27,076 bases of DNA. Origin: an uncultured Pirellulales bacterium. Its GTDB lineage: Bacteria; Planctomycetota; Phycisphaerae; Sedimentisphaerales; Anaerobacaceae. Both the position numbers and the translations under genes were made by a program. A model generated the notes under the pieces. That model did not search any database and had not been told where the DNA came from. It saw only the letters and a program-made list of their open reading frames with translations. Of the stretch, positions 1 through 16,145 are shown one piece after another (positions within the stretch are counted from its first letter, which is position 1; each line of letters starts with the position of its first letter). Location of the stretch: assembly GCA_964586995.1 (NCBI GenBank), contig CAZPJZ010000001.1:1-27076 (forward strand). Direction: 5' to 3'.

Positions 1-1908
1 GACGAGCAGGCGGCGCGCTTCGGTGATGTGATGTTCGCTGGCTGTAGCGAAGTCTGGAGAACAGGCAAAGGTTAGTACCGTACCCTTGCCGAGCCGGTTT
101 ACCAGGATGGCCGGGCCGACGGGAGAATCGGCGCTCATCGGCCAGTCTGTGCCTTCCTTGCCCTGAAGCTGGCGGGTTGTCCGATACGGCTGAAGCAGTT
201 CTCCAACAGGCTTGGCCGACCCTGGCTGGAACACTCCCGCCAGCCCCTTGACCAAGAAAGGCCACTTGGCGGGAATACCGTGATGCAATTGCCGTTCCTC
301 GTCGGAGTCCTCGGAATCCGCCCCAAATCTTACCCAGTTATCCAGCGAATCGAGCTTGCGCACAAACTTTGCTCCGATGAGTTCTTCGAGCGAGGATGTT
401 TTCGACAGAATTCCCATCCAGTCATAGCAGCCGGTCAGCCCCGTGACAATCAGGTTGCCTCCGTCTTTCACATAGCGGAGTAGCAGTGCTGCCTCCTTGT
501 CCGATACGATGCCGGCGTTCGGTAGCAGGACGATAGGTACCCGCTTGAGTGTCTCGATGGTCGTATTTTCATCAAGTACAACGCTCCAGGGGATGTGCTC
601 ATAGACCAAGGCCTTGTGCGCGCCCTGGAAGGCCTGGAAATATGTTTCCGGATGGTCACGTCCGACCCAGTCACGAGTCCGGCTGCTGAAATATATTGCT
701 ACCTCGGAGATAGGCTCGTGGCCGAAGTGGGACCGTTTACTGTGGACCTCTTTGAAAGCCTTGCCGATACGCTGGTACGCCACCGGGTCAAGCCAGCCGT
801 CAAAGCCGGTCTTATCTACAATCGTCACGAAGGCGCCATGCGATAGCAGGGTTAGAAGCTCCCAACGTATATCGTTGAGCGGCCGTGTCGTCTGATCGTG
901 ATACATCCGGACCCCTCGCTGCATGGCTACCTGAAACGGCAGGCCGGGTGTGGAGGCCCTGTAGAACTCGGCGTTCAGTCCGACGGTCAGCGCGCTAAAG
1001 CCCCAAACACCCGTCTCGCCCGTAACAAAGTCTGCGTTGCCGGCGTGCTGTACCGGCCGCTGGCCAACCTCCCAAGAAAACGGTGGATTGCCGTGGTAGT
1101 TGAAGTCCACCGTAGCGTTTGGATTGAGATTCTTGATATGACTATAAAGAGCCTTCTCGAACCGCTCGCTTGTGGCGTAGCGAAACTCGAGCATCCGGTC
1201 CCAGTCCTCATCCCAGGTCACAGCCTTGGGCATTGCTCGTCCGTATTTATTCTTGAACTTCTTGCGGCAGTGCTCGCACCAACACCCGTACGGTGGGCCG
1301 AAGCCCTGATCCATCATGTCGATGTGAAGGCCCGCAATCCCATAAGCTAATTGTTCGGCGACAATGGTCTTCATTACATCCAGATAGCTGGAGTTGTAAC
1401 AGAATCGGTCGATGCCGTTGCCCTGATAGTCTTGCATCTGCAACTCCGGGTGCTCTTTTAGAAAATGGCCGCCTTGCTGCACCACACAGTATGCAATAAC
1501 CGGCATTCTGTGCTTTCTCGCCTCTTCCACCGTCTCTTGCAGCGCATCCCTGTTGCCAAGTCCTGGGGCCTTTGGCAGCAGCTTCGAGTCGTAATAGGCG
1601 TAATCCCCATCGCGTGCCCAAATGACGAGGTAATCGCAAGTGGCCGACAAACAATGACGAACGATTTCACGTCCGTCAAACTTGCTACAGTAACGTGCAT
1701 CTTTGCGGTCGCTATGGCCAAACTGTGCGCCGGTTGGGCCAACTTCCATTCCGACCAAAGAATGTTCGTACCAGGATTCTGTGTTCTTCTTCTCTGTCTT
1801 GGGGGAAATGCCTTCGGCTGCTGCGGTTGCCCTCATGCCAGAGCCACCCAACATAGCCGCAAGGACAACCCACAGCCATGTGGTTCTCACAAGGTAAGAT
1901 GCATTCAT
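1..1908 (-). CDS. Secreted glycoside hydrolase, GHL6/GH151(alpha-L-fucosidase)-like TIM barrel plus beta-galactosidase trimerisation-like domain; 3'-partial, runs off window
   Basis: Manual translation from ATG at 1908 (AGGAG RBS upstream) gives MNASYLVRTTWLWVVLAAMLGGSGMRATAAA (signal peptide) ... FDGREIVRHCLSATCDYLVIWARDGDYAYYDSKLLPKAPGLGNRDALQETVEEARKHRMPVIAYC ... GLHIDMMDQGFGPPYGCWCEHCRKKF ... EVAIYFSSRTRDW ... PIVLLPNAGIVSDKEAALLLRYVKDGGNLIVTG. The frame continues to base 1 (EHHITEARRLLV). It is absent from the ORF track because its stop lies outside the window. Family assigned by motif resemblance only. Confidence 0.75.
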   Translation of the reverse strand, partial: MNASYLVRTTWLWVVLAAMLGGSGMRATAAAEGISPKTEKKNTESWYEHSLVGMEVGPTGAQFGHSDRKDARYCSKFDGREIVRHCLSATCDYLVIWARDGDYAYYDSKLLPKAPGLGNRDALQETVEEARKHRMPVIAYCVVQQGGHFLKEHPELQMQDYQGNGIDRFCYNSSYLDVMKTIVAEQLAYGIAGLHIDMMDQGFGPPYGCWCEHCRKKFKNKYGRAMPKAVTWDEDWDRMLEFRYATSERFEKALYSHIKNLNPNATVDFNYHGNPPFSWEVGQRPVQHAGNADFVTGETGVWGFSALTVGLNAEFYRASTPGLPFQVAMQRGVRMYHDQTTRPLNDIRWELLTLLSHGAFVTIVDKTGFDGWLDPVAYQRIGKAFKEVHSKRSHFGHEPISEVAIYFSSRTRDWVGRDHPETYFQAFQGAHKALVYEHIPWSVVLDENTTIETLKRVPIVLLPNAGIVSDKEAALLLRYVKDGGNLIVTGLTGCYDWMGILSKTSSLEELIGAKFVRKLDSLDNWVRFGADSEDSDEERQLHHGIPAKWPFLVKGLAGVFQPGSAKPVGELLQPYRTTRQLQGKEGTDWPMSADSPVGPAILVNRLGKGTVLTFACSPDFATASEHHITEARRLLV

Positions 1909-1977
1909 TCTCAGACTCCTGTTCCAACATGCTCACGGCAGCAGCTACAGTGTATCACTCTACCTTCGTGTTTGTAA

Positions 1978-2076
1978 GCACTTTGCAGACAGTGCGGTCA
2001 TAATCCCGTCTGTCAAAATAGATGCCACCACCGGGTAATTTGAGTAGCTCACAAATAGAGCAAAGTGCAATTTTGC
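1978..2076. promoter_or_regulatory. Candidate operator sites in the divergent promoter region
   Basis: gcactttgc (1978-1986) is the exact reverse complement of gcaaagtgc (2060-2068), and 2060-2076 is itself a GCAAA-N7-TTTGC dyad. The sites lie between two divergent catabolic genes. No regulator is in the window. Confidence 0.2.
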
Positions 2077-2294
2077 CCTTGATTTTTCCATATCATTCGC
2101 AAGAATAACCTGTCAGGAAGAAACGCGGAATGGTCATCGCAGAGCCCGATGTATTCGGGGGCTGCAGCCAGGTATGGAAAAAACGAGGGGCAACCTCGAT
2201 ATAGAGTTCCACGCAACACTATATCGAATAGTACGCAATGACCTGCTTGTTCGATTCCAGGGGCTGCTCGAACCCTTCTTCCGTGAGGCCGAAC

Positions 2295-3269
2295 ATGATT
2301 AACAGCAAAATAGAAGGTCTTGTTGCTGCTCCTATGACGGCATATCATCCGGATGGTACTGTGGATCTGGGCATAATTCCTTCGTATGCAGCTTTCTTAC
2401 ATTCTAACGGAGTTACCGGGGTATTTGTCAATGGCACGACGGGCGAAGGTTTTTCCCTGGCCGTTGAAGAGCGCAAAGCGATTGCCGAGAGTTGGATGAA
2501 GGCCGCACCTGGTAATTTCAAAGTCATCGTTCATGTATCGCATACGTGTGCAGTCTCAGCCTGGGACATGGCTCGCCATGCCGCGCAGATCGGCGCCTGG
2601 GGCATAGGCGAAATGGGCTCCATCTTTTACAGCCCTAACAGTGTTGAAGAACTGGCTGACTGCGCTGCACAGACTGCTGCCCAGGCTCCTGAGTTAGCCT
2701 ATTATTATTATCACATCCCGTCCATGAGCGGTGTTTGCTTTCCTATGTTAGAATTCCTCAGAGCCGCGGAACCGAAAATCCCTAAACTCGCTGGTATCAA
2801 ATACACTCACGAAGACCTTGTTGATTTTGAATTGTGCCGTGAATTCAAGGACGGCAGGTACGATATACTTTATGGACGTGACGAGACACTTCTTTGCTCG
2901 TTAGCCCTTGGTGGCCGCGGGGCTGTTGGCAGCACCTACAACATAATGGCCCCGCTTTACACTCGGCTTATTGCTGCTTTTGATTGCAGCGATCTTAATG
3001 AGGCCAGGCGTCTTCAGCGAATATCCATGAAGGTGATCGGGCTTTTGGCGGGAACGGGAAGTTTCAATTCTGCCCTGAAAGAGGTTATGAATATGATTGG
3101 ATTTAACCTGGGCGGAGTTCGCCCTCCACTTAGAAATATCGAAGCGGCGAAGATTACCAGATTAAGGACCGGCTTAAAAGAACTTGGTTTCTTTGACTTT
3201 TGTTCAAAAATGCCGTCTATTCGATCCGGCATTTCCCATATAAAACGTGACAAACGAGCTGAATTTTGA
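2295..3269 (+). CDS. nanA: N-acetylneuraminate lyase-like class I aldolase (DHDPS/NanA family, Bacteroidota-type)
   Basis: GVFVNGTTGEG, YYYHIP, Schiff-base GIKYT, DILYGRDETLL, GAVGSTYN. GIKYT fits NanA better than DapA (GIKEA). Start placed at ATG 2295 after a GTGAGG RBS rather than at 2238. Context is sialic acid catabolism. Confidence 0.8.
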   Translation: MINSKIEGLVAAPMTAYHPDGTVDLGIIPSYAAFLHSNGVTGVFVNGTTGEGFSLAVEERKAIAESWMKAAPGNFKVIVHVSHTCAVSAWDMARHAAQIGAWGIGEMGSIFYSPNSVEELADCAAQTAAQAPELAYYYYHIPSMSGVCFPMLEFLRAAEPKIPKLAGIKYTHEDLVDFELCREFKDGRYDILYGRDETLLCSLALGGRGAVGSTYNIMAPLYTRLIAAFDCSDLNEARRLQRISMKVIGLLAGTGSFNSALKEVMNMIGFNLGGVRPPLRNIEAAKITRLRTGLKELGFFDFCSKMPSIRSGISHIKRDKRAEF

Positions 3270-3425
3270 TGCTATAGAGCTTATGGGTATCACTCAGACA
3301 TAGTCGAACGAATAAGAATACCCAGCACAGGCTTTTAGCACTGCTGCGTCAGTTCGTTCACGGTCGGCTAAAACTGGTTAAGGGGGAAACGTCAGATAAG
3401 AGAACTGAAAATTAAGGATCGAAAA

Positions 3426-4571
3426 ATGAAAACGTCAGGAAGAATATTAAGTCTGATGCTTTTCAGTGCTCTGATGTTTACTGGACAGAACAGCCTTGCA
3501 CAGAAGACTGGAGATGTCAAAGATGTTGTCACCGTTGATGTACTCCCGCCGAACAGTCTGTACAAACAGGTATGGCAGCCATTCATTGCCCGATGGAAAA
3601 AGAATCACTATGTTGTTGCATACGGGCTGAAGCTGGACGGAAAGAAAGACATGGGTGACATCGTCTGTTCTATCACCAGAGATGGTGGCAAGAGCTGGAC
3701 TCCGCCCATTATTATCTTCGACCACCGGCTGCCCAACGGTACACAACGTTTCGCCTACGCCAATGCAGTCCTGTTCAGACCTGAAGGACAGAATACTATT
3801 TGGTGTTTTGCCATGCGGTGCCCCCTGTTCTACGGCGACAGTGAAGACAGTGAACTGTGTGCGGCCTATTGCTGTGATGGCGGGTTGTCATGGCAGCAGG
3901 TTGAGCTAAGGATGGGATTCCACTCCCCGCTTATTACCAATGCAGGTGTCGTTACTGTCAATGAGGCAGCGACCACTAAGTATTTACTTCCCGTACATCG
4001 TAACACAAAAAGGCATGATCCGAAGGGGGACAGGGAACAATTTGTGCTGGAAAGCACAAACCTGTTAAACTGGGAACTGGCAGGTTACATCCCCAGGCCA
4101 TCGAAGGTATGGATCCACGAAGGGAACATGGCTCAAGGTGATAATCCCGGTGAATTGAAAATTGTAATGCGGACCGCACAATACGAAAGCGATAAGCTGG
4201 CCCTTGAAATTCCCCGGGCCTACTCATCGGTAAGCAGGGACAATGGAAAGACCTGGTCGATGGCCGTCGAGGAGCCTGCCCTGTACAATACGGCTGCCAA
4301 AGGATTTTTCGGAAAGGATTCGAAGGACAGGCATATATACGTATATAACGATGATGAGAAAAGTGTCAGAAAAGGACTCTATTATGTCATAAAGGAACCA
4401 GGTGAAGATTGGTCGAAACCAAGACTCTTCTACTGGGATAACAATCGCAACAGCTATCCTACACTTCTTGAAAAAGAGCCCGGCATTTTTCTCTGTGTTT
4501 GGGACAGTTCAGATGATCCAGACATAAAAAGATCCGTAATAAGATTTGGCATTCTGGACCTTAGCAAATGA
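3426..4571 (+). CDS. Secreted exo-alpha-sialidase-like Asp-box beta-propeller (BNR repeat protein)
   Basis: N-terminal signal peptide; Asp-boxes SITRDGGKSW, AYCCDGGLSW and SVSRDNGKTW; HE, MRT and C-terminal SYP motifs at the positions of sialidase catalytic Glu/Arg/Tyr. The canonical RIP motif is absent. Confidence 0.7.
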   Translation: MKTSGRILSLMLFSALMFTGQNSLAQKTGDVKDVVTVDVLPPNSLYKQVWQPFIARWKKNHYVVAYGLKLDGKKDMGDIVCSITRDGGKSWTPPIIIFDHRLPNGTQRFAYANAVLFRPEGQNTIWCFAMRCPLFYGDSEDSELCAAYCCDGGLSWQQVELRMGFHSPLITNAGVVTVNEAATTKYLLPVHRNTKRHDPKGDREQFVLESTNLLNWELAGYIPRPSKVWIHEGNMAQGDNPGELKIVMRTAQYESDKLALEIPRAYSSVSRDNGKTWSMAVEEPALYNTAAKGFFGKDSKDRHIYVYNDDEKSVRKGLYYVIKEPGEDWSKPRLFYWDNNRNSYPTLLEKEPGIFLCVWDSSDDPDIKRSVIRFGILDLSK

Positions 4572-4623
4572 AATATCGATAGCATTAAAGGCATTGCCTT
4601 AGAAATGGCGGAAAGTTCGAATT

Positions 4624-5418
4624 ATGACGGGTAAAGAACTGAAGGATTCACTTAGGAGCGGCACAAGGGTGTATGGCACACTGATAGTAAGTACCTCTCC
4701 AAGATGGATGGATGTAATAGACCAACTGAATCTGGATTTCGTATTCATCGACACGGAACATATCGCCGTCGACAGGCAACAACTCTCCTGGATGTGTCAC
4801 GGATACACGGGAAAAGGATTGGCACCCGTGGTTCGAATCCCTGCTCCCGATCCGTATCAGGCCTGTATGGTATTGGATGGCGGTGCAAAGGGAATTGTCG
4901 CTCCGTATATCGAGTCCGTAAATGAAGTGAAACAGCTTATAGGTGCAGTGAAAAAAAGACCCTTAAAGGGGCAGAAACTGAGAGATTATTTGGAGGGGAA
5001 GAAAGGCCTGGAGCCCGTCTTGGCCGAATACATCGGACAACATAATGACGATCATGTGCTGATCCTAAACATTGAAAGCCAGCCGGCAATCGACCATTTA
5101 GATGAAATACTAAGAGTTCCGGGTTTTGACGCCGTATTGATCGGGCCACATGACCTCTCGTGTAACCTTGGCATTCCCGAACAGTATGACCATCCGAAAT
5201 TCAAGGCGGCAGTGGAAACCATCATCGAAAAGGCAAGAAAGGCAAATGTTGGTGCAGGAATTCATGCATTGTTTGAAGACAGTGTCGAAAAGGAGATAGA
5301 GTGGGCTAAGATGGGTGCTAATCTCATACTACATAGTGGTGATATCAATCGCTTCACACAAGTTATGCGTGATGATATTAATACATTGAGGACAGTATTG
5401 AACGATGATGCTAAATAA
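4624..5418 (+). CDS. HpcH/HpaI family class II (metal-dependent) pyruvate aldolase
   Basis: FIDTEH, VVRIP, LDGGAKGIVAPY, NIES and IGPHDLS carry the conserved His/Arg/Glu/Asp residues of the family. Confidence 0.9.
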   Translation: MTGKELKDSLRSGTRVYGTLIVSTSPRWMDVIDQLNLDFVFIDTEHIAVDRQQLSWMCHGYTGKGLAPVVRIPAPDPYQACMVLDGGAKGIVAPYIESVNEVKQLIGAVKKRPLKGQKLRDYLEGKKGLEPVLAEYIGQHNDDHVLILNIESQPAIDHLDEILRVPGFDAVLIGPHDLSCNLGIPEQYDHPKFKAAVETIIEKARKANVGAGIHALFEDSVEKEIEWAKMGANLILHSGDINRFTQVMRDDINTLRTVLNDDAK

Positions 5419-5548
5419 CCTCGTGCGGCAATCGATACATAGGATATGCTTGTTGGCAAGATCCTTAATAAAGCCATCGGACAAATTCTCTTTATCCGAC
5501 CAATATACCTGCCAAAGAGATAAATTGTGTCTGCCTTTTAATATTTGA

Positions 5549-8287
5549 ATGCCCATGAAGCAAAACACTGTTGCCAGATTAGTAATTTCTTCGCTTCTCA
5601 TGATTGCGTCACTTGCTGTTTCAGTCCATGCAACGGGACAAGAGATTCTGAGTTGGAGCCAGCTTGCCGAGCTGCCGCCGATAGAAGGGCAGGTGGTGCA
5701 GCCGGGGTTAGCTGGGGCTTTCTGCGGCATTCACAATGATGCTTTGATAATAGCGGGCGGGGCCAATTTCCCTCGACCTGTCTGGGAGTCGAAGAAGGTA
5801 TGGCATGATGATATCTATGTGCTCGTAAGGCAGTCCGGAGGCTCAGCCCGAGGCGATGAGTCCTATCACTGGATAACGGGTTTCAAGCTTGAAAAGCCCG
5901 TGGCCTACGGTGCTTCGGTTTCGAGCAGGCATGGAGTCGTATGTATCGGCGGCAATGATTCCGAACGGACATATTCGCAAGTCTTCCTGCTGCAATGGGA
6001 CCCGCAGAGCAAGAAAATCACAAGCACATCGCTGCCGAGTCTACCGGATATCTGTGCGTATTGCAGTGCCGCCATGATCGCAGAGACCATCTATGTGGCG
6101 GGAGGAACAGCCGGCCTGGGTCTCGAAACAGCCAAGAGGAATTTCTGGTCCCTTGATATGTCAAGACTCAATGATCCAGGCTCGTTCAAATGGGAACAGG
6201 TTCCTGCTTGGCCGGGGCCGTCTCGGGCGTTTGCAATCGCGGTAGCACAGCACAACGGAACAACTGATTGTCTCTACGTCATAAGCGGTCGCCGGATAAA
6301 TACCGAGGAGGAAAGTAATCCACAGGTGCAGTTTCTCACGGATGTATATGAATTTGCGCCGACGAACTATGAACCGGAAAAATACAATCCGCAAACCGGC
6401 ACCTATACGGGCAAAGTGAATCCCTGGCGAAAACGCAAAGATGTTCCTCGGTGTGTCATGGCCGGTACCGCTATAAGTGTGGGACAAAGCCATATTGTGG
6501 TGCTTGCCGGCGACGACGGCAGGTTCTATTACGAGGTCGATGAACTAAAAGACGAGCATCCTGGTTTTCCAAACGAAGCGCTGCTGTATCATACGATCAC
6601 CGATACATGGACAAGCGCCGGTTCCATTCCGGTCAATCATGTGACCACCACAGCCGTTCGTTGGGGGAACAACCCGGCACGTGATCCAATAATTATTCCA
6701 AGCGGCGAAATTCGACCCAGAGTTCGCTCTGCGAAGGTCTGGCAGGTTTGCCTGCTTGGCAGTGGCGAGCGGTTCGGAATCATCGATTTTTCTGCGATTG
6801 GAATATATCTATCGGTCGTGATTGGTGTTGGGGTGTTCTTTTCTTTTCGCAATAAAAATTCGGATGACTTCTTCCGCGGCGGCCAGCGTGTTCCCTGGCT
6901 GGTGGCGGGATTGAGCATCTTTGCGACCATGCTCAGTTCCATCACCTTTATCGCCATTCCGGCCAAGGCCTATGCCACTAACTGGGTTTACTTTACATAT
7001 AATATGACGGCCATCGCTATTACGCCTTTTGTTATTCTGCTCTTTCTTCCGTTCTTTCGAAAGATCGATGCGACAAGTGCCTATGAATACCTTGAAAAAC
7101 GATTTAATCGCCCGGCGCGTCTTTTTGCCAGTGCGTCTTTTATTCTTTTCCAAATCGGACGAATGGCGGTCGTGATGTACTTGCCGGCGCTGGCTCTGGC
7201 GGCGATAACCCCTATGTCGGAGTATCAATGTATTCTTTTGATGGGGGTATTATGTATTATCTATTGCACGATGGGCGGGCTTCAGGCCGTCGTGTGGACC
7301 GATACCATACAGACTTGCGTTCTTCTGGGTGGGGCATTGGTCAGTCTTGCATTGATTGTTTCCCGTGTAGATGGCGGCGTTGGCGGTTTCATTTCGACCG
7401 CCGCCAGGCACGGTAAATTTCACATCATAAACTGGGATTTCTCTTCAATGAGCTTTACAACAACTGCTTTGTGGGTGGTTGTTTTGGGTGGAATCGCGCA
7501 AAACCTGGTTCCATATACATCCGATATGGCGGTCGTACAGCGGTATATGTCTGTTCCGGACATGTCCAGTGCGAAAAGGGCTATCTGGACGAATGCCATT
7601 GCCGTCCTGCCAGCCTCACTTTTGTTCTTTGGGGTCGGTACGGCGCTGTTTGTTTTTTACCGGGAGTATCCCGGCCGGCTCGATCCTGTCTTTAAGACGG
7701 ATGCCATCTTCCCGCTTTTCATCGCGCGTGAACTTCCAGCCGGTATCGCCGGCCTGGTGGTAGCCGGTATTTTTGCAGCGGCGCAATCAACGATTTCCAC
7801 GAGTATGAATAGTACCTCGACGGCCTTGGTTACAGATTTTATTCGGCCACTGAATCTCATCCAATCGGAGCGAGGATATTTGCGACTTGCCCGTGTATCG
7901 ACATTTGCCCTGGGTGTTTTGGGGACGGTTTTGGCCCTGTTGTTTGCTTCATCGAACATCAGGTCGCTGTGGGATCAGTTTATGAAGATACTTGGACTGT
8001 TTGGCGGTTCTATGTGCGGACTGTTCTGTCTGGGGATATTTACCAAAAGAGCAAATGGGCAGGGGGCAATTATTGGGGCTCTGGCAGGAGCGGCCGCAGT
8101 GTTTTTGGTAGAGCGGTATACAGGCATCCATTTCTTGCTTTATGCTTTTGTGGGGATAATGGTCTGCTGCCTGTGCGGTTATTTCGCCAGTGCAATGTTT
8201 CCAGCTTCGAAAAAATCTATTGCGGGACTGACCATCCATACGTTGAACAGATTTGAGATTATGAGAAAGAAGAGTTCGTATGAATAG
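5549..8287 (+). CDS. Fusion of a Kelch-repeat sialic acid mutarotase-like (NanM-type) domain and a sodium:solute symporter (SiaT-like)
   Basis: Signal peptide, then Kelch blades (GLAGAF, IIAGGANFP, AYGASVS, CIGG, YVAGG, WPGPSR, YVISGR, HPGFP, YHTITDTW, SGEIRPRVRS). From about residue 410 it is an SSS transporter (FFRGGQRVPW, ATMLSSITFIAIPAKAY, SAYEYLEKRF, VVWTDTIQ, DMAVVQRY, AAQSTISTSMNS). One uninterrupted 912-aa ORF; the start may be ATG 5555. Confidence 0.85.
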   Translation: MPMKQNTVARLVISSLLMIASLAVSVHATGQEILSWSQLAELPPIEGQVVQPGLAGAFCGIHNDALIIAGGANFPRPVWESKKVWHDDIYVLVRQSGGSARGDESYHWITGFKLEKPVAYGASVSSRHGVVCIGGNDSERTYSQVFLLQWDPQSKKITSTSLPSLPDICAYCSAAMIAETIYVAGGTAGLGLETAKRNFWSLDMSRLNDPGSFKWEQVPAWPGPSRAFAIAVAQHNGTTDCLYVISGRRINTEEESNPQVQFLTDVYEFAPTNYEPEKYNPQTGTYTGKVNPWRKRKDVPRCVMAGTAISVGQSHIVVLAGDDGRFYYEVDELKDEHPGFPNEALLYHTITDTWTSAGSIPVNHVTTTAVRWGNNPARDPIIIPSGEIRPRVRSAKVWQVCLLGSGERFGIIDFSAIGIYLSVVIGVGVFFSFRNKNSDDFFRGGQRVPWLVAGLSIFATMLSSITFIAIPAKAYATNWVYFTYNMTAIAITPFVILLFLPFFRKIDATSAYEYLEKRFNRPARLFASASFILFQIGRMAVVMYLPALALAAITPMSEYQCILLMGVLCIIYCTMGGLQAVVWTDTIQTCVLLGGALVSLALIVSRVDGGVGGFISTAARHGKFHIINWDFSSMSFTTTALWVVVLGGIAQNLVPYTSDMAVVQRYMSVPDMSSAKRAIWTNAIAVLPASLLFFGVGTALFVFYREYPGRLDPVFKTDAIFPLFIARELPAGIAGLVVAGIFAAAQSTISTSMNSTSTALVTDFIRPLNLIQSERGYLRLARVSTFALGVLGTVLALLFASSNIRSLWDQFMKILGLFGGSMCGLFCLGIFTKRANGQGAIIGALAGAAAVFLVERYTGIHFLLYAFVGIMVCCLCGYFASAMFPASKKSIAGLTIHTLNRFEIMRKKSSYE

Positions 8288-9812
8288 ACGCGATTTTCTC
8301 CGATTATCAGTGCTTAGCATAACATCAGTGTTTTCACGCAGGCTTATGGCATCTGAGCGTAAGCCTAATGTGCTCTTCATTGCCCTGGACGACATGAACG
8401 ATTGGATCGGTTCTTTAGGCGGATATTCAGAAAACGTGCACACACCGAATTTCGACCGTCTTGGGCGCAAGGGCGTCACATTCACCAACGCCCACAGTCC
8501 GTCGACTGTTTGCAACCCATCACGAACAGCGATAATGACCGGATTGCGGCCATCCACAACCGGCATATATAACAATGGACAATGGTGGCGGCCTGCTCTG
8601 CCTGATGTTGTGACTATGCCTGAGCACTTTCGAAAAAGCGGTTACCACGTTGAAGGCGGAGGAAAGATTTTTCACCATACGCTCGGTAACAACCCACCCG
8701 GGATTTGGGACAATTATTATCCCCAGGTTCAAGACGACCCGTGGCACTATGATTATCCCGTTCCAGGACAACATGAACCTAAGAAAGGCTTGCATTGGCC
8801 GCAAGGTTTTCCACTAAATGGTATTGAAAACGTAAGACTTGGAAAGAAACCGCCCGGTAACTACCGCTCATTTGACTGGGGCCCTTTTGACAAACCGGAT
8901 ATTCAGATGGGAGATGGTCAGATGGTCCAGTGGGCGATAGATTTTCTAAAAAGACCGCACGATAAACCGTTCTTTTTGGCCGCTGGAATTTACCGTCCGC
9001 ATCTGCCATGGTATGTCCCGAAAAAGTATTTTGATTTATATCCTTTAGATAGCATAAGACTGCCCGAGGTTAAAAGCGATGATCTGGACGATGTCCCTGC
9101 CGTAGGTAGAAAGATGGCCGAAGCTCGACATGCCGATTTCGAGCTCGTAAAGAAGGCAGGGAAATATAAAGAGGCAGTCCAGGCGTATTTGGCTTCCATC
9201 AGTTTTGCCGATGCGCTGGTTGGGCTTCTATTAGATGCTTTGGAGAAAAGCTCGTACCGAGACAATACGTTCATCGTAGTTTGGTCCGACCATGGCTGGC
9301 ATTTGGGCGAGAAGGGGGCATGGCACAAGCAGACACTTTGGGAACGAGCAACGCGCGTCCCGTTCTTTATCGTGGCGCCGCCGGTCACACAGCCTGGGTC
9401 GGTTTGTAATCACCCTGTAAACCTGATCGATATTTACCCGACACTTGTTGATTTATGTGGCTTGAAAGCAAATACGAAATTAGATGGGATCAGCCTCGTT
9501 CCACTTCTGAAAAATCCGGAAGCTGCCTGGGAGCGCCCTTCGGTCATTACGTATGAACGAGGAAACCACGCCGTCAGGTCTGAGCGATGGCGGTATATCC
9601 GCTACAATGACGGCACAGAAGAACTGTATGACCATGACAACGACCCCCACGAGTGGACGAACCTGGCAGGAGATTCAAACTTTGATTCAGCCAAGCAGAA
9701 GTTGGCGAAATGGCTCCCGAAAAGTGATGCGCCGCCGGCTCTTTCAAAGAGCGCTTACCATTTTGATCCGGATACCTACTCTTGGAGCAGGAAGGAGAAG
9801 TCACGGCAATGA
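8280..9812 (+). CDS. Cys-type sulfatase (iduronate-2-sulfatase/choline-sulfatase-like), Tat signal
   Basis: MNRRDFL twin-arginine signal; PNVLFIALDD; CNPSR-TAIMTG formylglycine motif; GIYRPHLPW; WSDHGWHLGEK. Overlaps the upstream gene by 8 nt. Confidence 0.92.
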   Translation: MNRRDFLRLSVLSITSVFSRRLMASERKPNVLFIALDDMNDWIGSLGGYSENVHTPNFDRLGRKGVTFTNAHSPSTVCNPSRTAIMTGLRPSTTGIYNNGQWWRPALPDVVTMPEHFRKSGYHVEGGGKIFHHTLGNNPPGIWDNYYPQVQDDPWHYDYPVPGQHEPKKGLHWPQGFPLNGIENVRLGKKPPGNYRSFDWGPFDKPDIQMGDGQMVQWAIDFLKRPHDKPFFLAAGIYRPHLPWYVPKKYFDLYPLDSIRLPEVKSDDLDDVPAVGRKMAEARHADFELVKKAGKYKEAVQAYLASISFADALVGLLLDALEKSSYRDNTFIVVWSDHGWHLGEKGAWHKQTLWERATRVPFFIVAPPVTQPGSVCNHPVNLIDIYPTLVDLCGLKANTKLDGISLVPLLKNPEAAWERPSVITYERGNHAVRSERWRYIRYNDGTEELYDHDNDPHEWTNLAGDSNFDSAKQKLAKWLPKSDAPPALSKSAYHFDPDTYSWSRKEKSRQ

Positions 9813-11278
9813 AAAGACGCACCTTTCTAAAGATATTGGGTATAGGAGCCTTATCACAGGCGTTTCCTGCTCTCTCATGGTCACAGAAGGCGAAAAGGCC
9901 CAACGTTCTGTTTATTGCAATCGATGATCTGCGCGGCGCCGTAGGCTGCCTGGGTGACAGGATTGCGAAAACAGCGAACATGGACAAACTGGCAAGACAC
10001 GGGACTGTTTTTCTAAACGCTTATTGTCAGCAGGCAGTGTGTAATCCGTCAAGAGCTTCCGTGATAACCGGCCTGCGCCCGGATACGCTCAAGGTGTGGG
10101 ACTTGAAAACGCATTTCCGCGAGCACCACCCGGATATTGTAACACTTCCACAATATTTCAAGCAGCATGGCTACTATACCCAGAGTTTCGGCAAGGTTCT
10201 CCACGGCCAGGGAGCGCCGTCGACGGACCCACCGAGCTGGTCGGCGGAGCCAGTCTGGGACCACTGCACCAGGCACGACCTGTATGCCCTGCCTGAAAAC
10301 CAGCCGGGCAGCGAAAACGACAAACAAGCCGCCGCAGAATGTGCAGATGTGCCGGATGAAGCCTACGTTGACGGCAAGGTGGCTGGCAAAGCAGTAAAAA
10401 AGATTGAAGAGCTCGCAGAAAATGGTAAGGCGTTCTTCCTGGCAGTAGGTTTTCGCAAACCGCATTTGCCTTGCTCTGCTCCTAAGAAATACTGGGATAT
10501 GTATAAGCGAAAAACTTTCGAGAACAATGATTGGCCAGCACTTAATAGACCAAAAGACGGGCCGGATATTGCCCTGCACAATTGGAGGGAGCTTCGAGGT
10601 TATACCGACATCCCAGACATCGGGGATGTGCCTGCGGAAAAAGCAGCCGAAGTTCGCCACGGCTATTACGCTGCTACAAGTTATACCGATGCTCAAATTG
10701 GCAAGCTGATTGATACACTTGATAGATTTGGCTTGCGAGAAAACACTATTATCTGCCTCTGGTCAGATCACGGCTTCCACCTTGGTGAGCATACCCTTTG
10801 GTGCAAAACCAGTAATTACGAATTTGATGCACGGGTACCATTGATCATATCTGCACCGCAAAAGAAGAAGGGGCAAGTCTGCAGAAAGCTGGTGGAACTC
10901 GTTGATATGTATCCTACGTTGGTTGAGTTGGCCGGATTGGCTGTACCAGGCGGTTTAGAGGGGACTTCTATGGTCCCATTGCTCGATGACCCACAGCGAG
11001 GTTGGAAAAAAGCAGCCTTCACACAGTTTCCGCGCCCGCCGTACTATAAGAAAAGTTTTGACGCTATGGGCTACTCGGTTCGCACCGAGCAGTTTCACTA
11101 TATAGAATGGATTGATGTCAAGAAAAAGCAGCCGATAGCGTCTGAGCTGTATGACCATCGTTCAGACCCTTATGAGCTTACAAATCTTGCACTGAAAAAG
11201 GAACAGCAAACGACTGTCAGGCAGCTTAGCAAACTTCTTGAGGATGGCTGGAAGACCGCATTGCCGGCAAGGAGATAA
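9809..11278 (+). CDS. Cys-type sulfatase (iduronate-2-sulfatase-like), Tat signal
   Basis: MKRRTFL signal at ATG 9809 (AAGGAG RBS, ATGA overlap with the previous stop); PNVLFIAIDD; CNPSR-ASVITG; GFRKPHLP; WSDHGFHLGEH. Confidence 0.92.
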   Translation: MKRRTFLKILGIGALSQAFPALSWSQKAKRPNVLFIAIDDLRGAVGCLGDRIAKTANMDKLARHGTVFLNAYCQQAVCNPSRASVITGLRPDTLKVWDLKTHFREHHPDIVTLPQYFKQHGYYTQSFGKVLHGQGAPSTDPPSWSAEPVWDHCTRHDLYALPENQPGSENDKQAAAECADVPDEAYVDGKVAGKAVKKIEELAENGKAFFLAVGFRKPHLPCSAPKKYWDMYKRKTFENNDWPALNRPKDGPDIALHNWRELRGYTDIPDIGDVPAEKAAEVRHGYYAATSYTDAQIGKLIDTLDRFGLRENTIICLWSDHGFHLGEHTLWCKTSNYEFDARVPLIISAPQKKKGQVCRKLVELVDMYPTLVELAGLAVPGGLEGTSMVPLLDDPQRGWKKAAFTQFPRPPYYKKSFDAMGYSVRTEQFHYIEWIDVKKKQPIASELYDHRSDPYELTNLALKKEQQTTVRQLSKLLEDGWKTALPARR

Positions 11279-11281
11279 ACA

Positions 11282-12793
11282 GTGACGCCAACAAGAAGAC
11301 AACTCATGAAATCTGCATTGGGTACGGCGATGGCCTTTGGATTCCCAGGATTATCCGGTGCACGCGAAAGAGGCCAATCAAAACCGAACATTCTGCTCAT
11401 GGTGGCAGAAGACCATGGTCTGCAGTTGAGCTGCTATGGTGATAAACATATTTCCACCCCGAATTTGGATGCCCTGGCAAAGACGGGGGTCCGATTTGAA
11501 AATACGTATGTTACCCAGGCTGGCTGCAGCCCATCAAGGGCTTCGATACTCACGGGGCAGTATCCTCACAAGAACGGCCAGATCGGCTTGGCTACACATG
11601 GTTTACGTATGTACAAAGACAACATGCCTAATCTTACAACTTATCTCAAAGGCGCTGGCTATCGAACAGAGATCATCGGAAAGATACATGTCAATCCGGA
11701 ATCTGCCTTCGTGTTCGACTTCAAGGCATTTCCAAAAAGCAATTTCAATAACCGTCCTGTAAGGCAGTTCGCCCGCTCATCTGGAGAATTCTTCCGGGCT
11801 TCGGATGAACCGTTCCTAATGTGGATAAGCTTCCCAGATGCGCATCGTCCCTTCCACGACCAGCAGGATGGTATCCCCGCCAGGTTCATGGGACCATATG
11901 ATGTTGAGACCCTGCCTATGGTTGGCGTATCTACTCGGCAGACACTCCAGACGACAGCGAGCTATTACAACTGTATGCAGCGTTTAGACGTAGCTGTTGG
12001 GATGGTTCTAAAGGAATTGGCCAATTCCGGGAAGGCTGATAACACACTTATCATCTATCTTTCAGACCACGGCCCTGATTTCCCTCGCGCGAAAAAGACA
12101 ATCCGTGAAGGCGGAAGCCGTGTGCCGATGATAATGAGATGGACGGGACATTTGCCGAAAGGGAAAGTCGAGTCTCGTTTGGTTTCCAGCCTTGACATCC
12201 TGCCGACCATACTTGAAATAGTTGGCACAAAACCACATCAAAATGATCTGGACGGCCGCTCCTTGATGCCTTTGTTCTACAAGGAATCCGCACCATGGCG
12301 AGAATACCTGTTCACCGAATTCACGTTGCACTGGCCTGAAACATATTATCCGGGTCGTGCCGTACGGGACAGCCGTTTCAAGCTTGTCCACAACCTGTTG
12401 CCTCATCGCGAAAATCCGGTATATGACATCTACCTTGTTAAACAAATGCCTAAGACGTTTACCCCCGAGGAACTCAAGGATATGCCAGAACACGTTCGGG
12501 AGGCATACAAAATTTTTCGGCAGCCTCCGGAATTCGAGTTGTATGATCTTCAAAATGATCCGTGGGAGTTTCACAACCTTGCCAAAGACTCACGCTATGT
12601 GGAACAGTTCATACGTCTGAAAAAACGCTTGGCCGAATGGCAGGAAGAAACGAATGATCCCCTGCGGCACAAGCACATCCTTGACAAATTCACAACCGAG
12701 AATGACGCCACAATGACCAGTGGAAAATATATAAGAAAGAAATCTGGGCAATGGAAGTATTCCGAATACTTCTTTGCAGGAGATGATATGTGA
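11282..12793 (+). CDS. Cys-type sulfatase (N-sulfoglucosamine sulfohydrolase/sulfamidase-like), Tat signal
   Basis: GTG start, TRRQLM signal; PNILLMVAED; CSPSR-ASILTGQYPH; DAHRPF; SDHG; FPRAK. Confidence 0.9.
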   Translation: MTPTRRQLMKSALGTAMAFGFPGLSGARERGQSKPNILLMVAEDHGLQLSCYGDKHISTPNLDALAKTGVRFENTYVTQAGCSPSRASILTGQYPHKNGQIGLATHGLRMYKDNMPNLTTYLKGAGYRTEIIGKIHVNPESAFVFDFKAFPKSNFNNRPVRQFARSSGEFFRASDEPFLMWISFPDAHRPFHDQQDGIPARFMGPYDVETLPMVGVSTRQTLQTTASYYNCMQRLDVAVGMVLKELANSGKADNTLIIYLSDHGPDFPRAKKTIREGGSRVPMIMRWTGHLPKGKVESRLVSSLDILPTILEIVGTKPHQNDLDGRSLMPLFYKESAPWREYLFTEFTLHWPETYYPGRAVRDSRFKLVHNLLPHRENPVYDIYLVKQMPKTFTPEELKDMPEHVREAYKIFRQPPEFELYDLQNDPWEFHNLAKDSRYVEQFIRLKKRLAEWQEETNDPLRHKHILDKFTTENDATMTSGKYIRKKSGQWKYSEYFFAGDDM

Positions 12794-12863
12794 AGATGAG
12801 ACCCATTTCATGTGGTCTAAGTCGTCCCCCTCTTTTGTATAGCTTAGAAGGAGAGTGACAAGT

Positions 12864-14666
12864 ATGAATAAGCTAAATAGACGCCAGTTTTTGCAGGTTG
12901 GCACGGCTTCAGGCGCGGTCTTGGTTTGGGGATCGGCAAAGAGTTCATCCAGGGCACAGCAATCCAGCAAGATAAGCACAAAAAGCGAAAGACCGAATAT
13001 TCTTTGGATATGCACCGATCAGCAGCGCTGGGACACGATTGGTGCGCTTGGAAATCATTACGTTCACACTCCCAATATTGACCGTATTGTAAACGAAGGT
13101 GTAGCGTTCGATCATGCATTCTGCACGTCGCCGATCTGCACCCCCAGCCGCGCCGGTTTCCTGACCGGCATGTATCCCTGCGCAGTCAAAGCATGTAAGA
13201 ATGGCGCGGAATTATGGGCCGAACAGGCCCCGCTCGTGACAAAGCTCTTTAGAGACATGGGTTACGTATGCGGTCTGGCCGGTAAGCTTCATCTGGCATC
13301 CGCAATGAAGAACGACAGGGAAACCCGGCCAAGAGACGATGGATATTCGGTATTTCACTATAGCCATAGTCCACATCAGGGGGGCCAGAAAAATGATTAT
13401 CTGGTATGGCTGGAGAAACGCGGCTATTCGTATAAAGACCTTGGCAAACTGGATGGCCAGGCACACGCACGCCTTCACCAGACAACGTGGTGTACCGACC
13501 GCGCCATAGATTTCATACACGCACATAAAAAGCAGCCCTGGCTTTTCAGTGTCAACATCTATGATCCTCACCCACCTTTCAACGCACCACCCTCGTATGT
13601 GTCCCGGTACGACACTTCTTCTTTGCCGGGCCCTGCATTTAGAGATTCTGATATCGAAGAGAAAGGTCGCTTCAGCAGAATCGTGCTTCAGAAGAAGCCC
13701 AGGCATTACTCGCAGTCCGATGCCAAACAGCACCAGGCTGACTATTGGGCCCAGATCGATCTTATCGACGAGAACGTGGGACGCCTCCTTTCGACGCTCG
13801 AAGAGACCGAGCAGGACAAAAGCACCGTAATCATCTTCACCGCCGACCACGGCGATATGTGCGGAGATCACGGAATCCGCGCCAAGGGCTGCCGCTTCTA
13901 TGAGGGCCTGATCAGAGTGCCGCTCATATTCTGGTCCCCAGCCCGGTTCAATAAAGGACTTGTCAGCAAGGCACTGGTCGAACTGACGGATATCGCGCCT
14001 ACTTTGCTGGATATTGTAGGAGAGCGAATTCCCAGTCGTATGCAGGGAAGAAGTCTTCTACCGATTCTTCGCGGCGAGGCGAATCCTGACAGACATCGCG
14101 AATTTGTGCGCTGCGAATTCTATGATGCGCTTGACCCAGAGGGACTGCTCCCTGCCTTTGCGACCATGATCCGAACAAGAAGTCTAAAGCTTGTCGTGTA
14201 TCACGGACACACGCTCGGCGAGCTGTTCGATCTGTCGAACGACCCAAAAGAGTTTGACAACGTGTGGGATCAGCCGGACTATGAAGAGAAGCGCCTCGTC
14301 CTTCTCAAACGTTGTTTCGATGCCACAGTCCTTGCATGCAGTGCGCAAATGCCTCTGCTTGAATCGCAATCTGGCGTTTCGGCTATGGCGGGATTGCAGG
14401 AGGGAGAAAGTGTTAGAAACGTCGGCCGTATATCGGCAGCAGGGACACGGTGGGAAACGGTGTTCCAGAGCGACTCCTACCGCATGGTGGTTGACCATAT
14501 GGGAAGGAGCTCTGCGTTGTTCGACTTGAGGAAGGATTCCGGCAAGGAATCGAATGTGTGGGGTGATGCCATGTACCGCAAGGTACGTTTTGATCTGCTC
14601 AAGAAATGTTTTGATGCCACAGTCTTTGCGATCGACACAGGGCCTCAGCGGGTGGCACGTTATTGA
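12864..14666 (+). CDS. Cys-type sulfatase (choline-sulfatase-like), Tat signal, tandemly duplicated C-terminal domain
   Basis: MNKLNRRQFL signal (ATG 12864 is better spaced from AAGGAG than GTG 12855); PNILWICTDQQR; CTPSR-AGFLTG; DPHPPF; ADHGD. Two copies of the ...LFDL..D..E..NVW....Y...R..LLK.CFDATV tail. Confidence 0.9.
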   Translation: MNKLNRRQFLQVGTASGAVLVWGSAKSSSRAQQSSKISTKSERPNILWICTDQQRWDTIGALGNHYVHTPNIDRIVNEGVAFDHAFCTSPICTPSRAGFLTGMYPCAVKACKNGAELWAEQAPLVTKLFRDMGYVCGLAGKLHLASAMKNDRETRPRDDGYSVFHYSHSPHQGGQKNDYLVWLEKRGYSYKDLGKLDGQAHARLHQTTWCTDRAIDFIHAHKKQPWLFSVNIYDPHPPFNAPPSYVSRYDTSSLPGPAFRDSDIEEKGRFSRIVLQKKPRHYSQSDAKQHQADYWAQIDLIDENVGRLLSTLEETEQDKSTVIIFTADHGDMCGDHGIRAKGCRFYEGLIRVPLIFWSPARFNKGLVSKALVELTDIAPTLLDIVGERIPSRMQGRSLLPILRGEANPDRHREFVRCEFYDALDPEGLLPAFATMIRTRSLKLVVYHGHTLGELFDLSNDPKEFDNVWDQPDYEEKRLVLLKRCFDATVLACSAQMPLLESQSGVSAMAGLQEGESVRNVGRISAAGTRWETVFQSDSYRMVVDHMGRSSALFDLRKDSGKESNVWGDAMYRKVRFDLLKKCFDATVFAIDTGPQRVARY

Positions 14667-15072
14667 GGTTCAGCAGGAGTTTCCAGGACAGGTCTTTACG
14701 ACATTTCAGCCGATATTTGTAGCTTATCTGGTAATCGGCATGCAAGACAGCCACGGGGGAGTTTAAGAGATCGGCAAGTAGAATAGCCACACCGCAGCAG
14801 GCTCCACCGGTTGTTAGTCCCACATGTAATAATGACTTACGGAGGCGAAGCGTGCTTACGGTGCAAGAGATGGTTATTGGGGCTATCGGCTGCTTGCGTC
14901 ATAAGTTATACCCATGGTGCGGCCTGATTGATGATGTTCCCATCTACGACCGGGCCAGTGACGCCGTAATAGCGATACTGTTTTGACACAGAAAGAAAAA
15001 TGGCTGCCGGCTTGAAACACTGAGAGCCTTTCTATTGGGAGTGTTGTTGGCTCAAACCCCCGACTTTTTTCA

Positions 15073-15224
15073 GTCGAGTAGACGTACTATAGCCCTCTTG
15101 GGTGGGCATGCTTTGTGTTCGCCGTTTTCCCTCTCTTTCGATTGAGGGGTGCCACAATATTCTGCCATGCAAGAGAGCTTCAACGTCCCTCACGGAACCG
15201 GACGTGCAGATTGCCCGCATCCGG
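15073..15224 (-). mobile_element. 3' remnant of a group II intron (domain V plus extended domain VI); no RT/maturase ORF
   Basis: Minus strand reads CCGGATGCGGGCAATCTGCACGTCCGGTTC (DV hairpin with 2-nt CG bulge), then GAG-GGACGT...ACGTCT-A-CTC-GAC (DVI with bulged branch A seven nt from an AC 3' end). DVI contains a 10-bp internal stem (15091-15100/15170-15179) and a GAAA-capped hairpin. Confidence 0.85.
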
Positions 15225-15356
15225 AACGTGCGAAGCAGGCCGAGGCGAGCAGACCCATTGTCGTGGTATTTTTGCCATATTCAGATTCTCCGTGATTACG
15301 TCCAATCACCGCTTTCTGTGCACTGTCCCCAGCCATTCGGGGTTGTCTCTATTATT

Positions 15357-16004: not shown

Positions 16005-16145
16005 AACCCAATGTCCAAATAGCGATTATTAGATACATCAACCCTTTTCTGTAGAGTGTTCATTGCTGTTAATAAGTGATATTCTCTATTGTTTATCATC
16101 CTCTATTATTCTGATGGTTCGTCAATGTTTTTCCTGTATGGTAGT

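Follow-up and report, generated by a model that had tools for sequence, protein, structure and literature searches.

What kind of pathway is encoded where a predicted sialic acid lyase and a predicted sialic acid transporter enclose a sialidase-like exported protein and a second aldolase, and where four sulfatases follow directly behind? Such a cluster occupies positions 2238-14666 of a 27,076-nucleotide stretch of DNA from an uncultured Pirellulales bacterium (GCA_964586995.1, CAZPJZ010000001.1), hereafter called the window. The window is the entire contig C1 of a 3.01-Mb metagenome-assembled genome (MAG) of 547 contigs with a completeness of 74.55%, and the absence of a gene from either the window or the genome is for this reason weak evidence. 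We favour, with moderate confidence, the explanation that the cluster is a composite, probably horizontally acquired operon for glycoconjugates that are both sulfated and capped by sialic-type acids, and that it carries in addition a putative cassette for a second ulosonic acid. An initial annotation, made from the nucleotide sequence, had proposed a catabolic system for sulfated sialoglycans or non-canonical nonulosonic acids that desulfates and imports a modified nonulosonate. Overall, this interpretation is partly supported: the type of locus was recognised correctly and a second branch is plausible by way of the cassette, but the argument with which the proposal had been made does not hold up.

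An eight-gene cluster joins nan genes and sulfatases

All eight genes of the cluster lie on the + strand and are tightly packed according to the open reading frame (ORF) list. From nanA to sulf4, the intergenic spacings amount to 156, 52 and 130 nt, an 8-nt overlap between the end of siaF and the start of sulf1, a second overlap, a gap of 3 nt between sulf2 and sulf3, and finally 61 nt. The 8-nt overlap of siaF and sulf1 suggests coupled translation. A promoter and terminator scan of positions 1-17500 was uninformative, as it returned 16 and 20 sites compared to 19.1 and 16.8 expected from shuffled sequences, and the operon structure is therefore drawn from the gene spacing. A gathering scan against Rfam gave no match and ARAGORN detected no tRNA. 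For two of the genes translation probably begins inside the longest ORF: NanA would start at Met 20 of the listed translation, and Sulf2 at the ATG at 9809 (MKRRTFLK).

The base composition sets the cluster apart from the genome. Its GC content of 0.496 compares to 0.542 for the genome and ranks near the 1st percentile among 60 genomic windows of 12.4 kb each, with the lowest values found for the HpcH gene (0.459) and the neighbouring gene for the BNR-type protein (0.476). This low GC content suggests horizontal acquisition.

The ORF list and Pfam confirmed all nine components named in the initial annotation, that is, the sialidase-like protein, the NanM-SSS fusion, the NanA-like lyase, the second aldolase, the four sulfatases and a glycosidase. 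Likewise, no nanE, nanK, nagA, regulator or esterase gene was recognisable in the window with Pfam and NCBIfam, as had been stated. The glycosidase-like gene, however, probably does not belong to the system, because it has no counterpart in any of 18 related loci (tblastn). This gene is divergently transcribed (1-1908, - strand), is truncated at the contig end and encodes an exported protein with matches to GHL6 (2.3e-09) and Glyco_hydro_42M (1.2e-08); its GC content is 0.559 versus 0.496 for the cluster.

The transporter is a member of the SiaF clade

The gene siaF (5549-8287) encodes a 912-residue protein composed of a predicted periplasmic NanM (Kelch) mutarotase domain (Pfam NANM, 1.2e-35) and an SSS symporter (Pfam SSF, 1.7e-42). 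Its hydrophobic N-terminus, read from the translation, is taken to be a leader peptide. The symporter half matches the sialic acid transporter SiaT (5nv9) at 1.6e-113, with the next transporter type following at 5.2e-57, and it retains the carboxylate ligands of SiaT, S60, T63 and R135. In SiaT, Ser60, Thr63 and Arg135 are described to bind the carboxylate of N-acetylneuraminic acid (Neu5Ac; PMC5931594). Severi et al. (2021, PMC8461474) report a SiaF clade of ST5 transporters from Bacteroidetes, Planctomycetes and Verrucomicrobia, which are NanM-SSS fusions with a leader in nan gene context, and the available text of that work refers to SiaF as yet to be characterised in detail or biochemically. 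The mutarotase-transporter fusion of the window is a member of this clade.

Other residues of the SiaT pocket, namely T58, F78, G81, Q82, F243, N247 and Q250, are changed in SiaF, and these changes are alike across the 10 SiaF proteins compared save at G81 and Q250. The equivalent of Gly81, located at the N-acetyl pocket (SiaF residue 484, codon at about 6998-7000), is Tyr in the window and in loci L001 and L002, whereas the 7 remaining proteins, including that of the sulfatase-linked locus L014, have Val; the Gln250 equivalent is Ile in L014 only. We had considered these changes as a sign of a non-Neu5Ac substrate and rejected this idea as a general argument, since SiaF proteins linked to a GlcNAc 2-epimerase of the AGE type have the same residues.

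To place SiaF in its genomic context, one genome per species was scanned, which resulted in 18 loci, 13 of which were annotated with our own ORF caller and Pfam and all 18 of which were compared by tblastn. NanA adjoins SiaF in L001, L002, L004, L010 and L014 (tblastn), and a DHDPS gene does so in L003, L005 and L017 (Pfam). A GntR regulator is found next to SiaF in L001, L004 and L010, an AGE-type epimerase in L004, L008 and L010, and a strong GH33-type BNR_2 protein lies nearby in seven loci (L001, L002, L005, L009, L013, L014 and L015). SiaF is normally the core of textbook Bacteroides-style nan clusters of the GntR-NanA-AGE type. The related loci carry the titles of environmental MAGs from Planctomycetota, Hydrogenedentota, Sumerlaeota and Lentisphaeraceae. 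Four of them, L001, L002, L009 and L015, encode SiaF proteins 86-91% identical to that of the window under MAG titles as different as Pirellulales, Phycisphaerales, Sedimentisphaerales and Sumerlaeota, which points to a block that moves between lineages or, alternatively, to mislabelled bins. In the Lentisphaeraceae MAG locus L017 (2255-4977), NanM and SSS are separate, overlapping ORFs of 456 residues each next to the DHDPS gene, representing either the unfused ancestral state or a frameshifted fusion.

The lyase is closest to Neu5Ac lyases

The first gene of the cluster (2238-3269) codes for a NanA-like class I aldolase of the DHDPS family (Pfam DHDPS, 7.3e-41). Its top 33 sequence matches in the PDB are all named N-acetylneuraminate lyase (NAL), headed by 6h4e (7e-57), 5afd (2.6e-53) and 6arh (7.8e-53), and the alignments to NALs retain GTTGEG, GIK and RDE...GSTYN, so that the Schiff-base Lys (in GIK) and the segments for sugar binding are present. 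The protein stays under the cut-offs of the NCBIfam equivalog models, reaching 130.1 of 281 bits for NF003164 and 116.3 of 382 bits for TIGR00683, both of which were built on other NAL clades. Judged by these comparisons, the lyase appears nearest to genuine Neu5Ac lyases. The proposed import of a modified nonulosonate thus gains little: SiaF belongs to the published clade, its pocket equals that of the AGE- and GntR-linked members bar one position, and the lyase points to Neu5Ac.

The absent nan genes had been taken as an argument for a route other than the textbook one. This argument is weak, as the window is the whole contig of an incomplete MAG, and both NagA (324.7 bits, above cut-off) and a strong GH33 protein are encoded on other contigs of the same genome, which also has a Glucosamine_iso fragment at a contig end. 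A weaker form of it can be kept. In the genome, at its completeness of 74.55%, we detected no orthologue of NanE, the ROK kinase or NanE-II, and in the complete chromosome that carries L002 (G401) NanE is likewise lacking and the AGEs are distant ones. The single AGE-family gene of our genome is 72% identical to the AGE of the L002 chromosome, and both share 23-31% identity with the AGEs from nan clusters of relatives; the latter are mutually 39-71% identical. We had regarded the AGE of our genome as the closure of a Bacteroides-type route, and withdrew this candidate on account of its identity of only 23-27% to the nan-cluster AGEs. In this weaker form, the point about absent genes comes down to the processing of N-acetylmannosamine (ManNAc), to which no gene of this clade could be assigned on the basis of an incomplete MAG and of AGE homologues that are distant.

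Sulfatases recur beside SiaF in close loci and in a distant one

The four sulfatase genes fill the downstream half of the cluster and encode Sulf1 (8280-9812; Pfam Sulfatase, 5e-47), Sulf2 (9782-11278; 3.4e-49), Sulf3 (11282-12793; 1.2e-47) and Sulf4 (12855-14666; 2.9e-46), the latter with a C-terminal extension of about 120 residues. All four translations show the C-x-P-S-R motif (CNPSR in Sulf1 and Sulf2, CSPSR in Sulf3 and CTPSR in Sulf4) and an RR-containing N-terminus resembling a twin-arginine translocation (Tat) signal, such as RRDFL in Sulf1, and the proteins are thus predicted to be Tat-exported formylglycine sulfatases. The genome contains six matches to the FGE-sulfatase family of maturation enzymes. 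With 37 Sulfatase matches in 3.01 Mb, about 0.08 would be expected per 6.4 kb. The four of the window are far above this chance expectation, and no other sulfatase group in the assembly is as large.

Six of the 13 annotated SiaF loci contain a sulfatase (L001, L002, L009, L014, L015 and, at its edge, L003). In L001, L009 and L015, SiaF is followed by orthologues of Sulf1-4 with 82-87% identity in unchanged order, and in L002 by one orthologue. In the distant locus L014, whose SiaF is 57% identical to ours, the order is GH33, sulfatase, GH16, sulfatase, esterase, SiaF and NanA, and the sulfatases are unrelated to those of the window. The linkage of sulfatases and nan genes, for which a synteny comparison had been suggested as a check, is thus real, as it is seen in four close loci and one distant one. 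FGE-domain genes are moreover found in L005 and L013.

We next compared the sulfatases to solved structures. Sulf1 matches 6hhm (2.2e-64) and an iduronate-2-sulfatase (7.4e-44), and Sulf2 matches 6hhm (1.5e-101) and the human iduronate-2-sulfatase 5fql (1.6e-71); 6HHM is an S1_7 endo-2-sulfo-xylose ulvan sulfatase (PMC9096561). Sulf3 is nearest to the human N-sulfoglucosamine sulfohydrolase 4mhx (9.2e-54) and to S1_8A (9bb9, 1.6e-48), where S1_8A-C are reported as galactose-2-sulfate sulfohydrolases (bioRxiv 10.1101/2025.01.09.632246). For Sulf4 the matches to 4upi (7e-49), the GlcNAc-6-sulfatase 5g2v (3.1e-48) and 6hr5 (2.4e-47) are tied and a subfamily is not evident. We refer to Sulf1 and Sulf2 as S1_7-like and to Sulf3 as S1_8-like, a likeness taken from the nearest solved relatives rather than from SulfAtlas models. 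The nearest characterised relatives act on xylose-2S, iduronate-2S, galactose-2S and glucosamine sulfate, and the sulfatases would accordingly resemble 2-O- or N-sulfatases of backbone sugars, not sialate sulfatases.

The close association of siaF and the sulfatases could also mean that the latter act on the nonulosonic acid itself, for instance on 8-O- or 9-O-sulfated Neu5Ac or N-glycolylneuraminic acid (Neu5Gc), with a modified nonulosonate being imported instead of the Neu5Ac route being run. The possible coupled translation of siaF and sulf1, the conserved sulfatase order in L001, L009 and L015, the Tyr at the Gly81 equivalent shared by the window, L001 and L002 as opposed to Val in seven others, and the lack of NanE, ROK and NanE-II orthologues in the genome would all be compatible with this. 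According to a 2023 review, as far as its available text goes, a microbial sulfatase for sulfated sialic acid has yet to be reported (PMC10017367), so that such an activity would need an unassigned enzyme, and Sulf4 is without a clear characterised relative. However, Sulf1-3 are nearest to S1_7 and S1_8 enzymes, which address position 2 of xylose, iduronate, galactose or glucosamine. Of the ten SiaF positions that correspond to the SiaT pocket, nine agree with those of AGE-adjacent SiaF proteins, the lyase is closest to genuine NALs, and gene absence from this MAG carries little weight. We consider sulfatase action on the sialic acid very improbable. There is no sign here that Sulf1-4 would be the first sialate sulfatases, and the desulfation of the nonulosonate envisaged in the initial annotation is unsupported.

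A different view of the same linkage is that sulfatases and nan genes are neighbours without forming one pathway, the sulfatases targeting an unrelated algal or glycosaminoglycan (GAG)-like polymer and merely sharing an island or promoter with a Neu5Ac uptake pair. No sulfatase stands beside SiaF in five loci (L004, L008, L010, L012 and L013), the known substrates of the sulfatase relatives are sugars of ulvan, carrageenan and GAGs, and the 37 sulfatase matches of the genome often form small groups. The low GC content of the block, together with a phage-integrase fragment upstream of it in L001 (2897-3460), suggests a mobile mosaic, and the flanks of the window and of L002 differ. This view is at odds with the recurrence of sulfatases in L014, an independent and distant locus in which they accompany SiaF, a GH33 protein and an esterase, and in metagenome loci such as L052, L056, L073 and L128, and with the overlapping or 3-nt junctions that lead from siaF into the sulfatases. 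On balance, we regard it as unlikely and retain the explanation of one operon for a glycan that is both sulfated and sialylated.

The exported GH33-fold protein departs from canonical sialidases

Between nanA and the second aldolase gene lies a gene (3426-4571; Pfam BNR_2, 1.6e-15) for an exported protein with a hydrophobic N-terminus, as read from the translation, which we term the weak-BNR protein. It belongs to a family of about 380 residues with 662 matches at E <= 1e-3 among 1943 candidates, the named ones coming from several phyla, and 26 other members that we aligned are 52-77% identical to the protein of the window. Public databases call it "exo-alpha-sialidase", and in the ESM Atlas only the automatic name "sialidase" is attached to the family. 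Compared to PDB sequences, the protein itself gave no significant match (best E 0.14), and the family profile matched weakly (best 5.1e-07).

An AlphaFold2 model with a predicted local distance difference test (pLDDT) score of 90.4 shows a six-bladed beta-propeller of the GH33 type. The model superimposes on the pneumococcal sialidase NanA (2vvz) with a VIA Z of 36.7 and a root mean square deviation of 3.2 over 335 residues, and reaches Z 35.5 to 8gn6 and Z 30.5 to a fungal KDNase. Foldseek supports the sialidase fold with an E of 1.6e-14. All matches with Z > 30 are sialidases or KDNases except for 5hx0 (Dfer_1899, of unknown function, Z 32.7), 3h6j, a putative neuraminidase, and 6qzh, a chemokine-receptor chimera with a sialidase insert. 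The fold is shared as well by the GH93 arabinanase 3a72 (Z 29.3), and sequence identity to the solved sialidases is 10-18%.

To assign residues, the weak-BNR profile was aligned by hhalign to five canonical GH33 proteins from the loci analysed (probability 96.8). The acid/base Asp (canonical D84) corresponds to D75, the nucleophile pair E250 and Y358 to E232 and Y344, the second Arg R266 to R249 and the third Arg R330 to R315. By contrast, the first Arg, that of the R-I-P motif (R59), is replaced by W50, and the buttressing Glu (E374) by D360. The Glu/Tyr pair, the acid/base Asp and the two Arg are invariant in 27/27 family members, and so is W50; R192, R369 and R373 are also invariant in the family, and one of them might stand in spatially for the first Arg. 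In an alternative alignment by HMMER the R-I-P Arg falls two residues upstream, on position 48, which is Lys in 13, Arg in 10 and Gln in 4 of the 27 proteins and Gln in that of the window. Under neither alignment is the arginine triad of the protein intact.

The protein encoded within the cluster is thus not a canonical sialidase. The sole canonical GH33 sialidase of the genome, with a YRIP motif and a BNR_2 match of 2.5e-42, is encoded elsewhere (G000:C207:1236-2450), on a 5-kb contig together with a zinc-ribbon protein, LemA and an M48 peptidase.

Within the phylum of the window, a sample of 400 other genomes contained four with a member of the weak-BNR family (E <= 1e-30). An RraA-like aldolase adjoins it in two of these four, one of which encodes a free NanM as well. 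No member was detected in 401 genomes of the phylum of G406 (E <= 1e-40) or in G406-G409, an empty answer that is uninformative.

The weak-BNR protein is often paired with a class II aldolase

The gene following that of the weak-BNR protein (4624-5418) encodes a predicted cytoplasmic, metal-dependent class II pyruvate aldolase of the HpcH/HpaI family (Pfam HpcH_HpaI, 3.2e-23). Its PDB matches are 3qz6 (3.3e-27), YfaU (2vws, 5.1e-27) and GarL (1dxe, 2.6e-21). With 96-99 bits it scores far under the cut-offs of 369-441 bits of four NCBIfam equivalog models and can thus be assigned to none of the named enzymes RhmA, HpaI and GarL. The alignment to 3qz6 retains the His, Arg, Glu and Asp positions that we take to be catalytic and metal-binding.

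A metagenome scan with the family alignment yielded 79 loci, 72 with a weak-BNR ORF and 68 with an ORF downstream of it. HpcH lies directly downstream on the same strand in 19/68 loci and within two genes in 23/72; an RraA-like aldolase is within two genes in 7/72, and either of the two in 26/72. Based on L046 and L047 we had regarded the RraA-like aldolase as a replacement of HpcH, an idea weakened by the finding that both often flank the weak-BNR gene together (L063, L069 and L101). The identities of weak-BNR and HpcH proteins to the pair of the window co-vary with a Spearman coefficient of 0.91 over 21 pairs, a value inflated by near-duplicate loci and kinship. The same loci contain a GH33-like protein in 28/72 cases, a sulfatase in 23/72, SiaF in 9/72 and NanA in 4/72. 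Of 146 unlabelled neighbour ORFs, 83 were scanned against Pfam. Beside the cassette, L059 and L085 encode a SASA sialate O-acetylesterase and L046 a free NanM; other esterases and MFS transporters are also among the neighbours. Literature searches, which did not cover subscription journals, retrieved no paper describing the weak-BNR/HpcH gene pair.

In the cassette between nanA and siaF, the weak-BNR protein would release and HpcH would cleave a second 3-deoxy-2-ulosonic acid, different from that handled by NanA. The leading candidate for this substrate is 3-deoxy-D-glycero-D-galacto-non-2-ulosonic acid (KDN), with acids of the pseudaminic or legionaminic acid (Pse/Leg) type or of the 3-deoxy-D-manno-oct-2-ulosonic acid (Kdo) type as alternatives. 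KDN is suggested because the fold and most of the catalytic residues of the weak-BNR protein are sialidase-like, because its usual partner is an aldolase other than NanA, and because KDN and Pse/Leg predominate among the nonulosonic acids of the sulfated extracellular polymeric substances (EPS) of granular sludge. According to the accessible account, EPS of both anaerobic and aerobic granular sludge is sulfated, rich in Pse/Leg and KDN, and contains less Neu5Ac (PMC10483923). We tentatively put forward, as a possibility that is still open to considerable doubt, that weak-BNR protein and HpcH form an undescribed route for a non-Neu5Ac ulosonic acid (KDN or Pse/Leg), which would employ a class II aldolase instead of NanA as a parallel branch in the operon. 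To our knowledge, no genes have been assigned to the catabolism of KDN and Pse/Leg in bacteria.

Some neighbours of the cassette do not fit sialic acid biology readily. In five metagenome loci (L055:3023-5053, L056:5954-7981, L059:7391-9397, L061:621-2630 and L060:3-683) the gene immediately upstream of that for the weak-BNR protein encodes a full-length transketolase, which sialic acid biology leaves unexplained, a D-2-hydroxyacid dehydrogenase is nearby in L088, L090, L092, L110, L111 and L117, and IlvD/EDD and enolase-superfamily dehydratases occur as well. These neighbours bring up the alternative that the cassette is unrelated to ulosonic acids and that the propeller is a glycosidase or a binding protein for a neutral sugar, for instance rhamnose, fucose or arabinose. 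HpcH would then belong to a non-phosphorylative route for sugar acids, in which it might split 2-keto-3-deoxy-L-rhamnonate into pyruvate and lactaldehyde. The 2-keto-3-deoxy-L-rhamnonate aldolase YfaU is among the top NCBIfam and PDB relatives of HpcH, the first Arg of the triad is not conserved, the arabinanase 3a72 has the same fold, and NanA is rare in the cassette loci. The invariant Glu/Tyr pair, acid/base Asp and two Arg are difficult to reconcile with a neutral sugar, as are the nearly exclusive structural matches to sialidases and KDNases at Z > 30 and the presence of GH33-like proteins, SiaF, SASA and NanM in some of the loci. A neutral-sugar cassette, including the example of rhamnonate cleavage, therefore appears improbable to us, and an ulosonic acid is kept as the tentative substrate class.

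As a separate observation, L015 encodes beside the cassette a propeller (2825-4147) with a weak Pfam match to the N-terminal domain of BT_1020, which we take to be of the rhamnogalacturonan-II ulosaric-acid hydrolase type. Relatives of this propeller were detected by phmmer in L059, L085, L086, L089, L094 and L099.

Other genes of the window

In the remainder of the window, from about 15 to 27 kb, Pfam recognises glycogen genes as well as a DUF6498 protein and an AI-2E transporter; these are unrelated to the cluster. On the - strand, positions 17443-22993 contain the DUF6498 gene followed by an ordinary-looking cluster of the glycogen type, with Pfam matches for a GDE amylo-alpha-1,6-glucosidase (18243-20366), a GH57 protein (20386-21642) and a GT4/GT5 glycogen-synthase-like protein (21704-22993). 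Three further - strand ORFs of 215, 175 and 269 residues (15357-16004, 16146-16673 and 26170-26979) have no match in Pfam or NCBIfam and were placed in a stretch of lower GC content (0.452 at 15-17 kb).

Discussion

Taken as one operon for sulfated and sialylated glycoconjugates, on which the sulfatase-rich, probably planctomycete MAG would feed, the cluster would work as follows. Sulf1-4, exported by the Tat system and matured by FGEs encoded elsewhere, would strip sulfate esters from the glycan backbone so that exo-glycosidases can proceed. Sialidases would free the terminal acid; the gene for a canonical GH33 enzyme lies on a separate contig in this genome and within the cluster in relatives. 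By homology and a published proposal, the NanM domain of SiaF would convert the alpha-anomer and the SiaT-like sodium symporter would import the sugar, whereupon NanA would be expected to cleave it to pyruvate and ManNAc. The cassette would add its ulosonic acid in parallel.

Several points weigh against this explanation. All activities at the locus are predicted from homology. The GH33-fold protein in the cluster is not a canonical sialidase, and the contig of the canonical one is unlinked and carries no nan gene. No NanE, ROK kinase or NanE-II orthologue that would continue the textbook route from ManNAc was found in the incomplete genome. With their nearest relatives acting on algal and GAG sugars, the sulfatases could serve a polymer other than that of the nan genes, and their link to SiaF is not universal. 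The four close loci may be repeated counts of a single lineage or mobile block, and the ORFs of the loci come from a simple longest-ORF script, not a gene finder. Finally, the transketolase, dehydrogenase and dehydratase neighbours of the cassette suit a neutral-sugar or sugar-acid route about equally well. As to the textbook Neu5Ac route being missing, the part that stands is the lack of NanE, ROK and NanE-II in the genome and of NanE in the L002 chromosome, while the incompleteness of the MAG speaks against relying on it.

The component families are known; the arrangement and the cassette are new. Our literature searches found no description of a pathway with this exact gene set, in agreement with the initial annotation and again outside subscription journals. 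The Bacteroides-type nan cluster, described as NanL, NanE-II/AGE, transporter and RokA (PMC10017367), shares the adjacency of a NAL homologue and a dedicated sialic acid transporter, and the relatives L004, L008 and L010 have an AGE by SiaF, with GntR in L004 and L010. Unlike it, the window is without AGE, ROK kinase and regulator, its transporter is an SSS fusion and not of the MFS type, and four sulfatases are appended. Compared to the SiaF clade as reported (PMC8461474), the NanM-SSS architecture and the nan context are the same; the window differs in the Tyr at the Gly81 equivalent, shared with L001 and L002, and in the overlap with a sulfatase gene. In its logic, with exported sulfatases unblocking exo-glycosidases on sulfated, sialylated host-type glycans, the cluster resembles the systems of Bacteroides and Akkermansia for foraging on mucin O-glycans and GAGs, in which sialidases are combined with S1 sulfatases. 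The colonic mucin sulfatases named in the available text of the review are 3S-Gal or 6S-GlcNAc enzymes (PMC10017367), whereas those of the window are nearest to the position-2 families S1_7 and S1_8 and share a single operon with nan genes, and the related records have environmental MAG titles.

Similar considerations apply to the cassette. With GH33 sialidases and KDNases (2vvz; the Aspergillus fumigatus KDNase 4m4n), the weak-BNR protein shares the propeller, the Asp-boxes, the acid/base Asp, the Glu/Tyr pair and the second and third Arg, but it differs in the missing R-I-P Arg, in the Asp at the place of the buttressing Glu and in having a class II aldolase and not NanA as its usual partner. 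HpcH is of the same fold family as the class II aldolases YfaU/RhmA, GarL and HpaI; its conserved partner, however, is an exported GH33-fold protein. Lacking the defining Arg and rarely standing beside NanA (4/72), the weak-BNR family is either mis-annotated at scale or the entry to an unknown ulosonic acid pathway.

The use of sialic acids has mostly been studied in host-associated bacteria, and the locus and its relatives carry the titles of uncultured environmental MAGs. If the reading of the cassette is true, one locus would hold two parallel ulosonic acid branches acting on a sulfated glycan. If confirmed, an operon joining SiaF to exported sulfatases would provide a genetic handle on the recycling of sialylated and sulfated EPS or animal-type glycans.

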